From: Squalus acanthias
Lineage: Eukaryota
Reading direction: 5' to 3'
Assembly: GCA_030390025.1 (NCBI GenBank)
Contig: CM059432.1
Span: 40,860,001 to 40,924,000, forward strand
Length of the DNA: 64,000 nt
The notes below the pieces were generated by a model. It did not search any database and had not been told where the DNA came from. It saw only the letters and a list, made by a program, of their open reading frames with translations. The translations under genes and the position numbers were made by a program. Shown here piece by piece: positions 3,086 to 25,547 of the stretch (positions are counted from its first letter, which is position 1; each line of letters begins with the position of its first letter).

Positions 3086-3272
3086 CCCTTTTGTTCTTTC
3101 ATCCCCTCCCCCATTTCCCAGCCTTTAAACTTGCTTTAAAATCTGTTCCATTTCCTGCTTTTTTCCAGTTCTGACGAAAGGTCTTCGACCTGAAATGTTA
3201 ACTCTGCTTCTCTCTCCACAGATGCTGCCTGGCCTGCTGAGTTTTTCCAGCATTTTCTGTTGTATTTTCATT
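3086..3272 (+). mobile_element. Penelope-like pseudo-LTR fragment with minimal hammerhead ribozyme motif (3167-3203)
   Basis: AGTT-CTGACGA-A-AGGTC/TTC/GACCT-GAAA-TGTT-AACT; homologous to 60531-60660, which is attached to a GIY-YIG C-terminus. Confidence 0.75.
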
Positions 3273-18800: not shown

Positions 18801-20607
18801 AAGTATCTAAGCTCCCTGCATGAAGACTGGTTTTTATCCATTACTGTTCATTTATAGCAAGAGACAAGGTTATATTATTACTGAATCCACTGGCAAGATC
18901 TTTGAAGAGTATCTTAATCAACGCAGCATGGTGTTATAAAGTTATAGCTCAGATAAGAGTGTTGTTATCAAATAATTGTCATTTGAATTAGCACTGTAAA
19001 AAGCTCAACAAATAGTATTTAACTGATAGAAATGTTGTCTCAACTCCTATAAATCCTTGGTCACAGAATGAAATGCAACTGATTTACGTTAGTTATATAT
19101 TATATTCTAATTTTATTACAGCAGGATGCAGTACTGCACTGTAATGTCCTCTGTATATTATGGAATTGTAATATGCCTGAGTTCCCTTGTAGCTACATTT
19201 TCCCCTATATTAACTTATGTTCCTATGTAAGACGACAAAGTAGGTAATGTTGTCACTCGGCTTATTTAGTCTTCTGTTACTAATACACTATAGGAAGTAT
19301 CATACTTAAGTTAATATGATTCTTGTAATTCATCACCTCAAATTGCTCTCATCACTACCAGTGACAGTATAGTCTGATCGTGATAATTCAACGTTGTTTT
19401 TTTGCAACAGTGCCCAGCAGTAAAACCAGTAAGTCCTGGACAAACTTAGACAATTGATGGCTCTGCCCATCATCATCCTTTACTGAAAACTGAGTAACAA
19501 CCATAATATGTTCTGCAAAAGAAGTTCTCAGTTTTCTTTCTTTCGTATGGAAAGAGAACCCAATATTAATTTGAACTGAAACTGTATTGAAACCAGCCAA
19601 AGCTTACATTTTTGGTGCCCAACTACCTACCCATTTCTCCCTTCTTCTCTTCATACTTTTGTAAGATTCCATGGGCAATGTCAGCTCTCTGGTACTTTAA
19701 CTAAATGGCCATTCTTCATGTATAAGTTTGGACAGCAAGACCAAGAAATTGGATCCCGCAGCACCCGCTGAAGGATCCAACATGACGAGTGGCATGCTCG
19801 CGCTCATTCCGCGCCAGGTATTCGCTTGAAACAGGCCCATTGCCTATGCAGATCGGGGAGCCTAACGCCTATTTCAGGTCCATTCTCCAAATTGCTTGGC
19901 ATCTGACCATACTGCGGTCAGTTTTCTCAGGCAGAGCAGCCAAACCAGCGGTCTTTAAAGAAGTCGCTGGTGGCTGCCACCAAAAAGATAAGTAAAAAAC
20001 TTACCTGAATGTGGAGCCAGAAGGAGCCTTAGGTTTTCCCAATTGCATTGCTGACAGTAACCAGTTCATTTTAAGTGGGTTACCATCAGTGTTACGAACA
20101 GACAAACTAAGCCAGTGTGGTATGGTATTTCTGTTAACTTTGGAACTGGCCAGATGGACCACAACAACTTTCCCAATCCTTTATAGTCCTATATTCCTGA
20201 CACTATACACCATTAGTTAAAACACATGTACGCTTTTGTGTCTAGGTATGGCCAACACAGTTACAAAAATATATGAAAACAATAGAAATGACTTTTTCCC
20301 CATTTATATATCCTAATGAAACCAGGAATGCAGTAAAAGAACAAACATTCAAAGGCAAGTGATTTCAAAGAAATAATCGAAGTAGAGCATGCAGCTTCTC
20401 CCAGGTATCCTCCTCCACTTCACTACCCTGTGGTGGTCCAATGAACAACTGAAAAAAGTGAGTGCCCGTGTGAAGCAGGCCTGAGGATCAAACTCACAAC
20501 CTTTCTTGATGGGAATCAACTACCTGAGATGTGGCCCACATTTAAATATGAAGAGTATTGGTTATGAAAAGGTGAAGATTAAAAGAGATGCTGTTGCAGC
20601 ATTTTCA

Positions 20608-20985
<378 letters not shown>

Positions 20986-21983
20986 TTACAATGTGAGTTT
21001 AAGGCATAATAATGGAGAAAAGCAACAATAAACCAGCATCCAAATAAAACACAACATCTGAAGGTCTAATTATAAGTGGCTACAGGGTCAAAAATTAGTT
21101 GAACGAATTACTTGAGCCATAGAATCTGAACTGGATAGTGATACTTTGGTGGCTGCCTGCAGTTAGTGTGGGATGTATTTTAGACATGCCAAATGAGGCA
21201 TCATGTACAGGAAATTCATACTGTGCATAGCAACCCATTTGATAACATATCATACAGGTACAAAGATGGGTGCTTTTGGTTATCAAGCAGTTAAATAAAA
21301 CTTTAAATCACTTCATTTTGAGTCACGTGGCCTGCAGGCCACTTTATTTCATCCATGTCAGTATGTCTAATTACTTGGAAGTTACCACTTAGCTTTGTTA
21401 CGTTCTCCAAAACTACTTTCTCTCGGAGAATTTTCTTTTTGTACAATAAAAAATACAAAAGGTTTATTTTTAGCTACTAAAATTTTGCTTTTTAATTTTA
21501 TATTATCTGGATTACAACTGGCCTCAGCTTCCCCTAGTTAGGGAGCAGAATAATTAGCCAGGGTTCTTGTTCCTGGTCACTATCCTGTGACCACTCGCAC
21601 ACACTAATACACACAAATGATCACGCTTGTGTGTACCCCAGTCAGCCTCTTCGGGAGAGGAGGGAAACATGGAGAAGGAAAAAAGAAAAAATATCACTGG
21701 GTAGTTTATCAAAACCAAACCACTGATTGGCTGGCTGCCAGTTAAATCCTAAAATTTGTTTGTTTTTATTTTGTGGCTCATTGAATCCAAAGAACCCAAT
21801 TGAAATTCAAACCAGAACTGCCCATTCAGATTCCATTACAGTACTTATTATTGTTTCAGACTTCATTTGACTCCTCTCTCCACCCACTGTTAAATTTCTG
21901 CAATCAGATATTGTACCTATGCATTGGCTCATCTTTATTTATGCAAGATGTCAACTTTTCCCTCCATGCTATAGCTTAGCTTG

Positions 21984-22106
21984 ACCTGACGAAGGAGCAG
22001 CAGCTCCGAAAGCTTGTGATTTCAAATAAAACTGTTGGACTATAACCTGGTGTTGTGCGACTTCTCACTTTTGTCCACCCCAGTCCAACACCGGCATCTC
22101 CGCATC
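21984..22106 (+). mobile_element. 123-bp hammerhead-containing Penelope-type mini-element with 13-bp TSD
   Basis: perfect TSD ATAGCTTAGCTTG at 21971-21983 and 22107-22119; core CTGACGA-A-GGAGC/AGCA/GCTCC-GAAAGCTT; AATAAA 22025-22030. Confidence 0.8.
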
Positions 22107-22214
22107 ATAGCTTAGCTTGTTCAGTTTGGGTAATAAAATGTGCATTTCTATTTTATTGGATTGCAAAGTAATGTCAAAATAGCTGAAATGTATGCTTCAA
22201 TATAGTTCCTTTAC

Positions 22215-22257
22215 CTCCTGCAATTTTTAGAAAATCTTCCCCTGTTGCCTTGTATAC
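22215..22257 (-). CDS. ESRP1: ESRP1 exon 9 (VYKATGEDFLKIAG)
   Basis: 43 nt, T-rich tract + CAG acceptor, G|GTAAAG donor. Confidence 0.95.
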
Positions 22258-22292
22258 CTGTAAAAAAAAAGTTAACAATGAGAATTTTGATC

Positions 22293-22415
22293 AAATTGGC
22301 TGCTGCATTTCCTACATTACAACAGTGGCTATATTTCAAAAGTACTTCACAGGCTGTAAAGCTCTTTGGGTCATTGAGATTGTAAAAGGTGCTATATAAA
22401 TGCAAGTCTTTCTGT
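22293..22415 (+). mobile_element. Deu-SINE 3' fragment
   Basis: CAAATTGGCTGCTGCATTTCCTACATTACAACAGTG…ATAAATGCAAGTCTTT; matches the reverse complement of 4800-4920. Confidence 0.7.
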
Positions 22416-22582
22416 TTTTTCTTTTATTGGTCCATAAAGATTTTTATCAATGTTCAATATTAAAGTGCAAATTAACTTATCATATGCAGTGCACTCTACT
22501 TCGCTGCATTCAAAAATGTATTAAATGCAAAATAGCAGAACGTATAAGTCCATTCTATGTGTTGATCACTGTGTGAAGATAT

Positions 22583-23008
22583 CTCGCACCAAGTCCCGTT
22601 CACCCATCACCCCTGTGCTCGCTGACCTACATGGTCTCCCAGTTAAACAATGCCTCGATTTTAAAATTCTCATGCTTGTTTTCAAATGCCTCTATGGCCT
22701 CATCCCTTCCTATCTCTGTAATCTCCTCCAGCCCTACAACCCTTCAAGATATCTCCTCCTTTTGGCCTCTTGCGCATCCCCGATTTTAATTGATCCACCA
22801 TTGGTGGCCATGCCTTCAGCTGTCGAGCCCCTAAGCTCTAGAATTCCCTCCCTAAACCTCTCCGCCTCTCTACCCTCCTTAAGACGCTCCTTAAAGCCTA
22901 CCTCTGACCATGCTTTTGGTCACCTGACCTAATATCTCATGTGGCTCGGTGTCAAGCACCTTGGGCCATTCTACTACATTAAAGATGCTATATAAATGCA
23001 AGTTGTTG
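22583..23008 (+). mobile_element. L2-type LINE 3' end
   Basis: RTKSRSPITPVLADLHGLPVKQCLDFKILMLVFK; shared tail. Confidence 0.8.
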
Positions 23009-23094
23009 ATATTTCTATGATTCTGTTTAGCTGTTGTAGCTTGTTAGATTGGTCATTTTTTACATAGAATTACATAGAACATAAAGCCAACATA

Positions 23095-23980
23095 CAGTAT
23101 TCAGTTCCATTCGCAACTCCTCAGATAATGAAGCAGTCTGTGCCCGCATGCAGCAAGACCTGGACAACATTCAGGCTTGGGCTGATAAGTGGCAAGTAAC
23201 ATTCGCGTCACACAAATGCCGGGCAATGACCATCTCCAACAAGAGTAAGTCTAAACGCCTCCTTTTGACATTCAATGGCATTTCCAACATCGAATCCCTC
23301 ACCATCAACATCCTGGAGGTTACCATTGACCAGAATCTTAATTGGACCAACCACATAAATACTGTGGCTACAAGAGCAGGTCAGAAGCTGGGCATTCTGT
23401 GTTGAGTGACTCACCTCCTGACTCACCAAAGCCTTTCCACCATCCACAAGGCACAAGTAAGGAGTGTGATGGAATACTCTCCACTTGCCTGGATGAGTAC
23501 AGCTCCAACAACACTCAAGAAGCACGACACCATCCAGGACAAAGCAGCCCGCTTGATTGGCACCCCATCCACCACCTTAAACATCACACCCTCCACCACT
23601 GGCGCAATGTGGCTGCAGTGTGTTCCATCCACAAGATGCACTGCAGCAACTCACCAAGGCTTCTTTGACAGCACCTCCCAAACCCGCGACCTCTACCACC
23701 TAGAAGGACAAGGGCAGCAGGTGCATGGGAACACCATCACCTGCAAGTTCCCCTCCAAGTTACACACCATCCTGACTTGGAAATATATTGCTGTTCCGTC
23801 ATCATTGCTGGGTCAAAATCCTGGAACTCCCTCCCTAACAGCACTGTGGGAGATCCTTCACTTCACGGACTGCAGCAGTTCAAGAAGGGGGCTCACCACC
23901 ACCTTCTCAAGGGCAATTAGGGATGGGCAATAAATGCTGGCCTTGCCAGCGACACCCACATCCCATGAATGAATAAAAGA
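23095..23980 (+). mobile_element. CR1/L2-group LINE (family B) 3' fragment
   Basis: QQDLDNIQAWADKWQVTF…, QVRSVMEYSPLAWM; tail GGGCAATAAATGCTGGCCTTGCCAGCGAC. Confidence 0.85.
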
Positions 23981-25547
23981 AAGCACAGAAACAGGTCATT
24001 CGGCCAAACCAGTCCATGCCGACGTTTATGCTCCACTTGAACCTCCTCCCATCTTTCCTCATCTAACTATCAGCATAACCCTCTATTCCCTTCTCCCTCA
24101 TATGCATATCTAACTTCCCCTTAAATGCATCTATACTATTGGCCTCAACTACTTCCTGTGTTAGCAAGTTCCACATTCTCACCACTCTCTGGATAAAGAA
24201 GTTTCTTCTGAATTCCCTATTCCATTTCATTTTTTGTAATTATTTTAAATCTCATTTTCAAGTTCTTTAGCTCCCTTACCATGCCCAAATTTCTGACTAT
24301 GAGGAGATGTAGGTGAACCTCTGTCAATACTGCTCTGCAAACAGATGCTGCATGAGAGAATAGCTTAGGATAATGTGCTTCCAAAGCTCCCTTCATCCCT
24401 CCACTCAGTTCCTTCCCTTACATCAGGGAGGTGAGAAAAATACATCCCATGGAGGCAAAGCCAGCAGGACCAGCTAAAAATTGCTGGAAACAGTGAAATT
24501 GGCTCCATTTATTATAGGACTGATTTAAAATGTGTAGGCTATAATCTTGTGACATGTTCCAGGCCATGATCCAGGATCCAGGAGCACCTGCAACCACAAC
24601 AAACGTGCGTGCAGCCTTATCTTTGAGACAGCGACCTGCCATGCTTTATCCACCAGACATCGATCCCAGGCATGCCACTGGCCCCAGTGAAATTCCCGGG
24701 CCATTACTTGTGATCTTGTAGAGTTTATCCTTATGGTCCAATTGAGCAAAATCTGAAATTGCCTCAATTTATTGCTGTCCATGTAGTTCAAATTAATAAA
24801 AAGAAAAAAAAAAATGAACTTCAACAGTTCAATTATTATGTATGTCCCTTTTCAAAATGGTTCAATTGGGAATAGAGTCAGGAAATGGGATTAGAGTAGA
24901 TAGTTTCAGTTGAAGAGCTAACACTGGCAGAGGCACAAAGGATGTTACAAAGTGTTGTTCTGTGCTGTACTTTCTATGATTCCATGATAAGCATAATTTC
25001 TCCCTCTTGATTGTTGTCCTGTTCTAAAAACCATTAACCTTCACTTAAACCTACAGTTCTACAGACTATGCTCCCACTTAAAATTAATGTTTCCCATTTA
25101 TCGCATACACAAATACTAATCTACTTAATTATGCTACAAGCAGTACATTTCAATACTTTAATACACTCAGTGTAAAAGTTTCATATCTCAATTGTTTGAG
25201 CTGTCTAACATTGTCCTCTTATTGCAAATCTAAACGCATTCAGCATTATTCGGACTAAATCAGTTTTTGTGCTGAAATAAACACTCCATAACTGTATACA
25301 TTGTCTAAGGGCATCAATAAATGGAAAATAATTTATATATTTTTAAATATATATAACATAAAGAGCTAGAAGCAATTGTAACAGAGACAGATATCTTGAA
25401 AATGCAAGTCTCATGAATGCGGGAGTGCAGGAAAACTTTAGGAACTTTTGGAGATTTTACTGGGATACCAATGTACAAATCACAGTTTTCCCATAGCCCA
25501 GTGCATGCTCCAGCAATCCTAGATTCAAGGAGTGTACAATAGTGTAC

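Follow-up and report, generated by a model that had tools for sequence, protein, structure and literature searches.

The closest described relatives of the locus reported here are Penelope-like elements (PLE) that carry an endonuclease (overview in PMC8557442), minimal hammerhead ribozymes (min-HHR) and retrozymes. In the Poseidon element PAc of Anolis, reverse transcriptase (RT) starts 111–118 nt into the ORF and the ribozyme cut lies at +26; an optional tail of 30–40 nt lies between two internal RT start sites within an A/C-rich stem-loop, and the anole ribozyme cleaved only with protein present and was dispensable for insertion in vitro (Frangieh et al., PMC11167929). The motif CX2-5CxxC marks Neptune and Nematis and is absent in Poseidon (PMC8557442), and PLE insertions have been described with 8–10-bp duplications and, in a rotifer PLE, with microhomology junctions (PMC3846280). 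Most minimal hammerheads are single dispersed motifs, probably from truncated PLE; their monomers showed no cleavage and their multimers low cleavage, and the hosts named are fishes, coelacanth, frog and reptiles, sharks not being named in the parts of that paper available to us (Cervera and De la Pena 2014, PMC4209133). [quoted passage not shown] Their definition asks for the hammerhead in at least two consecutive units (PMC7229834; bioRxiv 10.64898/2026.07.22.740005), and the 2026 preprint accepts minimal motifs as well and includes one cartilaginous fish.

We examined a 123-nt insert that carries a minimal hammerhead motif, within the window (the whole 64-kb stretch of Squalus acanthias DNA that was analysed). 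It likely represents the 3' end of a PLE with an endonuclease, truncated on its 5' side, and was probably dead on arrival. The features referred to below are as follows.

21971..21983, plus strand: target-site duplication, left copy, exact 13-mer ATAGCTTAGCTTG; three other organisms have the 13-mer once, with no insert.
22107..22119, plus strand: target-site duplication, right copy, exact 13-mer ATAGCTTAGCTTG.
21984..22106, plus strand: 123-nt insert, likely a 5'-truncated PLE end (pLTR end plus tail).
21984..22019, plus strand: motif of the minimal type I hammerhead, stem I damaged; its features agree with those given for min-HHR in PMC4209133.
21986-21992, plus strand: hammerhead core CTGACGA, read from the sequence.
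21993, plus strand: extra A before stem II, read from the sequence.
21994-21998 with 22003-22007, plus strand: stem II, GGAGC/GCTCC, 5 bp; pairing probability 0.96–0.98.
22008-22011, plus strand: GAAA, read from the sequence.
22010-22015, plus strand: AAGCTT; predicted cut after 22015.
22025..22030, plus strand: AATAAA hexamer; occurs after the hammerhead in the marine contigs L001 and L002 too.
22033-22041 (TGTTGGACT) with 22082-22090 (AGTCCAACA), plus strand: 9-bp stem; pairing probability 0.46–0.98; its GGAC/GTCC core is common to L002.
22066..22106, plus strand: optional A/C-rich tail, between two family 3' ends.
22215..22257, minus strand: ESRP1 exon of 43 nt, VYKATGEDFLKIAG; splice sites and in-frame join to the next exon.

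The first-pass annotation had described a perfect 13-bp duplication around 123 nt, and this is exact: the copies of ATAGCTTAGCTTG at 21971–21983 and 22107–22119 are identical and cannot be extended. Exact direct repeats of at least 13 nt at 50–500 nt spacing occur five times in the 64-kb window, so the duplication by itself is weak proof of insertion. That annotation had also proposed looking for the empty site in related species. Contigs from 4 of 23 sequencing runs (organisms A–D) were aligned to 21690–22330 at 80% likeness. A single contig in each of B, C and D passes directly from 21970 to 22107; this joint omits 136 nt, and its 13 ambiguous letters fit either side, which corresponds to one copy of the 13-mer. 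Organisms B and C come from the same study and have the same differences from the window, and D comes from a second study; the empty site therefore counts as two independent observations. Compared with the window, the flanks have 7 differences over 489 sites in B and C and 8 over 281 in D, and, with the site empty and the flanks diverged in all three, the insertion is younger than the splits from those organisms. In organism A, which may itself be the source of the window, a contig crosses the filled 5' junction with a single difference over 321 nt, and there is a hole in the right flank. It is the empty sites in relatives that establish the 13-bp repeat as a true target-site duplication, longer than the 8–10 bp described for PLE in PMC3846280. 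No second copy of the insert was found within the 64-kb window, the best other match (1424–1447, E 0.07) being judged chance. The duplicated target (21971–21983) has two occurrences of AGCT, and its final six letters, AGCTTG, recur at insert positions 22011–22016; this may be chance or may represent a target preference.

The core CUGACGA, the extra A, stem II and GAAA were found where they had been annotated, the insert does begin 2 nt before the core, and the motif is a minimal type I hammerhead. The min-HHR traits present are the CUGANGA core, GAAA, the extra nucleotide, G10.1–C11.1, a palindromic 15.2–16.2 pair and an NUH triplet, all of them described for min-HHR in PMC4209133. A palindromic AAGCUU had been proposed to replace stem III; its position stands, but the palindrome available for a dimer stem III is AGCU only (22011–22014), the outer A and U being A14 and N17. 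Stem I of the window copy reads C-G, A-U, a G.G mismatch and U-A (2 bp, a mismatch and one pair), compared to 4–5 bp in the Schistosoma families, and stem II has 5 bp compared to 7–8 bp in those families (PMC4209133). The usual min-HHR stem I of 4–5 bp is thus absent from the window copy, i.e., the motif is damaged; the two stem I pairs have a predicted pairing probability of 0.02 in local context, in agreement with the earlier remark that stem I is only about 2 bp and that activity is doubtful, an outlook which here too is a prediction. Given the damaged stem I, the lack of a partner copy in the vicinity and an orientation antisense to ESRP1, cleavage at 22015 is unlikely, and the window copy is predicted not to cleave. 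PLE hammerhead dimers have reportedly been treated by Lunse et al. N17 of the window copy is U, which gives the slowest of the NUH triplets. When two strands were folded without stem I, stem III pairing gave -20.9 kcal/mol compared to -25.5 kcal/mol for another pairing; the whole insert folded no better than its shuffles (z -0.39, or z -1.29 with the duplications).

A descriptor for minimal hammerheads matched two places in the window (21986 and 3171), compared to 1 match in 150 simulated 64-kb windows. The Rfam covariance-model check that had been suggested did not recover the motif: there was no hammerhead match at E up to 1 over 20000–24000, nor at gathering score window-wide. The sole Rfam match, to a fungal snoRNA model (E 0.85), was taken as chance. 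Variants at 5% or more in the four runs fell on none of the 23 constrained hammerhead positions and on 14 positions elsewhere in the insert, N17 and loop II among them; this depletion is weak (hypergeometric p 0.046). N17 varies within the insert's family: in run X1 about a fifth of the family depth has C at N17 (22015), and the share with A at 22018 (stem I position 1.3) is similar, so that the two variants are possibly one subfamily. The partner base of 22018 lies outside the window copy. No covariation in the stems was seen in the fixed alignment of 2 sequences; a U-A to G-C swap at the inner end of the 9-bp stem appears only after a gap is moved by eye and was not counted. The second descriptor match is another minimal type I hammerhead, of a different family (window 3165–3270, plus strand, core at 3171), with a 5-bp stem II (AGGTC/GACCT), a 4-bp stem I and T at position 15.2, which gives a U-G pair. 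No flanking duplication was found around it, and Rfam at gathering score misses it; its presence suggests that such hammerheads are common in the host genome.

The AAUAAA and the 9-bp stem noted earlier after the hammerhead are both in place, and the last 33 nt of the insert are 73% A+C. Contigs of the family show two preferred 3' ends about 35–40 nt apart, an outer one at about 22104–22109, within the span 22101–22114, and an inner one at about 22065–22075, which the contig data place to about 10 nt only. Among 26 listed family pieces (32 listed minus 6 rows of four orthologous contigs; 67,538 further pieces exist), 13 have at least 90 nt of other sequence on the 3' side, and these listed pieces end at 22101–22114 in 11 cases, at 22071 in one and at 22084 in one. 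Among the loose-end clusters listed (the table has 522 further rows), the top cluster for each end comes from a different run: 137 contigs at 22108 in X1 (median flank 255, agreement 0.37) and 318 contigs at 22065 in X9 (median flank 255, agreement 0.42), with heterogeneous flanks at both. The depth in X9 about halves beyond 22063, and back-joints from 22106–22108 to 22075–22076 (runs X1 and X9) delimit a 32-nt piece. In the contigs with these back-joints the last ~32 nt recur after 6–15 other letters (depth 47–100), in the order tail, short spacer, tail, which may reflect tail placement at either end of an insertion.

This arrangement resembles that of PAc as described in PMC11167929: the hammerhead is near the 3' end, there are two 3' ends 30–40 nt apart with an A/C-rich end, and the outer end lies about 90 nt past the cut (91 nt past the predicted cut in the insert, 85–92 nt by subtraction for PAc). 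The insert spans the cut site, as would be expected from an uncleaved template. Unlike PAc, the insert has no ORF start at stem II, as three frames stop inside or have no start, and it has no inverted or tandem partner within 64 kb, whereas L001 and L002 have one; the missing neighbour copy does not exclude PLE membership because this trait is frequent but optional.

A ribozyme-shaped pattern matched 2 metagenome loci, the marine contigs L001 and L002, and had no match in prokaryote genomes or viral contigs; a 25-nt family motif had no match in metagenome or viral contigs. The two marine contigs have 677 nt in common at 99.6%, and each contains a module made up of a hammerhead, AATAAA, a GGAC/GTCC stem and a similar tail region, which is identical to the insert at 85 of 119 aligned positions. 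The hammerhead portion of this match is circular since the contigs were found by a ribozyme-derived pattern; the part downstream of the ribozyme alone was matched or beaten by 27 of 2000 shuffles (p about 0.014). The L002 hammerhead has a stem I of 5 bp; upstream of its module, ~750 nt away, an ORF on the same strand has CX4CxxC, CCHH and GIY-YIG-like motifs. The terminal region of L002, from the endonuclease stop to the hammerhead, is long (about 750 nt). Homologs of the L002 ORF carry an RT domain, and Atlas look-alikes have GIY-YIG on 31–34% of members; in Pfam there was no match for the L002 ORF or P0002, and the GIY-YIG label is based upon the motifs, the Atlas look-alikes and the RT-bearing homologs. 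In L001 an inverted RT fragment adjoins the repeat (RVT_1, E 1.5e-5), and L002 begins with an inverted 109-nt piece of the repeat; both contigs have an inverted element fragment joined to a direct truncated copy (L002 1–109 and 983–1091; L001 1–374), the usual PLE arrangement. No PLE coding remnant was found in the 64-kb window by tblastn. As judged from these motifs and homologies, the putative PLE ORF is tied to a relative (L002), not to the insert's own family, and this nearest ORF-linked relative appears Neptune/Nematis-like, unlike Poseidon (PMC8557442).

The insert belongs to a very abundant family: the summed contig depth, which is not a copy number, was 0.8–8.3 million over 21998–22107, compared to ~6–53 in the left flank, in all four runs. 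Another very abundant repeat is present as a short piece at 22292–22327 onward, just past the acceptor side of the ESRP1 exon, and was used as a control for the loose ends. If many copies of the family started at the hammerhead 5' edge, the insert would be a discrete unit of ~125 nt, either with PLE proteins mobilising a ribozyme-plus-tail RNA in trans or with the folded ribozyme acting as a strong stop for RT. We consider this unlikely. The start of the window copy 2 nt before the core agrees with it, non-autonomous PLE derivatives have been described (PMC8557442), and the 5' loose ends, among the clusters listed, stand at 21980 in X1 (63 contigs, median length 21) and at 21984 in X9 (141 contigs, median 12) without a clear upstream consensus. 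Their consensus before 21980/21984 is of low agreement (0.45–0.50) and varies from run to run, as would also be seen if many copies began near the hammerhead. However, since the window's copy starts there, 5' loose ends must pile up at this edge regardless; they are short, as in the control repeat at 22292 (median 16–31), a repeat that continues, compared to a median of 255 at the true 3' ends. None of the 26 listed family pieces has at least 90 nt of flank at the hammerhead edge, and L001 and L002 continue for 590–1200 nt upstream of the module. A unit starting inside stem I would, moreover, break its own ribozyme. The listed contigs that have the hammerhead region and pass its 5' edge are three in number and all stop 20–35 nt further upstream; B and C also have a shorter copy, probably at a single locus, that begins near 22032. 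Thin as these contig data are, they suggest that the family repeat goes on upstream of the hammerhead. Three of the final 4 nt of the left duplication agree with the upstream sequence of the family, the alignment to L001/L002 reaches 21980, and the top 5' cluster of X1 likewise aligns to 21980; microhomology may therefore have set the 5' junction.

The insert lies antisense to ESRP1, about 110 nt from an exon, as the first-pass annotation had it: the gene is on the minus strand, and the 43-nt exon, which is upstream (gene direction) of the intron with the insert, is separated by 108 nt from the 3' end of the insert. The next exon, within 20608–20985, matches ESRP1 structures (E 2e-59). The exon number 9 given earlier presumably fits human ESRP1. 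On the ESRP1 strand (minus) the insert adds a UGG-rich stretch at 22075–22095, and a donor-like CAG|GTCAAG occurs at the insert junction (21980–21988); both lie 120–230 nt downstream of the 43-nt exon, and there is no evidence of their use. UGG-rich motifs are of the kind bound by ESRP proteins. That the insert is retained as a ribozyme or splicing element serving the host in ESRP1 is nevertheless hardly credible to us. Its position would suit such a role, the gene being a splicing regulator with an exon 108 nt away, but the insert is absent from the site in three related organisms, the ribozyme is on the non-transcribed strand with a damaged stem I (the motif being on the opposite strand, ESRP1 pre-mRNA does not contain the hammerhead), and the ESRP1 strand of the insert has no AATAAA or ATTAAA. 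Only slightly less remote is an origin from a metazoan non-LTR retrozyme, one monomer of which would have inserted by way of a circular RNA that had cleaved itself. Like retrozymes as described in PMC7229834, the insert is non-coding, has a type I hammerhead, is related to PLE terminal repeats and has a duplication of more than 4 bp, and solo monomers derived from PLE ends have been described (bioRxiv 10.64898/2026.07.22.740005). Unlike them it stands alone as a 123-nt copy, the 64-kb window containing no tandem unit; its hammerhead is the minimal PLE type and not canonical, with no stem III loop and a short stem I. Further, the copies end at fixed tail positions of PLE type, after which come unrelated flanks, and the edges of the insert differ from the predicted cut site. 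The retrozyme-like mini-element that had been put forward as one of two alternatives consequently falls outside the published definition, in view of the lack of tandem units in the window and of a canonical hammerhead; whereas the other alternative, a 5'-truncated Penelope copy, gains from the fixed 3' ends, the optional tail, the apparent upstream continuation and the L002 module at a PLE end.

We favour the 5'-truncated PLE end and, by analogy with the anole Poseidon, its formation may be pictured as follows. The GIY-YIG endonuclease of a PLE would nick the two strands 13 nt apart. Reverse transcription of the element RNA would begin at an internal site, where the A/C-rich tail has its outer end (91 nt beyond the predicted cut). 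The PLE reverse transcriptase would copy through the predicted cut site and the core and would detach from its template at a point 2 nt 5' of the core, perhaps by microhomology, as the target offers 3 of 4 matching bases there. Because RT would have copied through the cut site and core, the element RNA used as template would have been uncleaved at the ribozyme site. The hammerhead would then be a passenger of the terminal repeat, its stem I broken by the truncation, with no second copy to supply stem III.

A search of the literature, with repeat libraries outside its scope, found no published description of the insert's particular family; we do not claim the family as undescribed, and the insert is likely a typical member of a kind already on record. 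Vertebrate genomes have been described as containing, by the thousand, solo minimal hammerheads that come from truncated PLE, and as read here the locus matters little. It is, with its verified empty site, exact duplication and family tail, a clean example of the kind, and usable as a lineage marker. The copy would imply that RT read through the ribozyme site of an uncleaved template, which agrees with the anole result in vitro. There is a small chance that insertions start preferentially at the hammerhead 5' edge, either because the ~125-nt module is itself mobile or because an uncleaved folded ribozyme sets an RT stop; if this were true, PLE hammerheads would gain a function that does not need cleavage, which would bear on what PLE hammerheads do.
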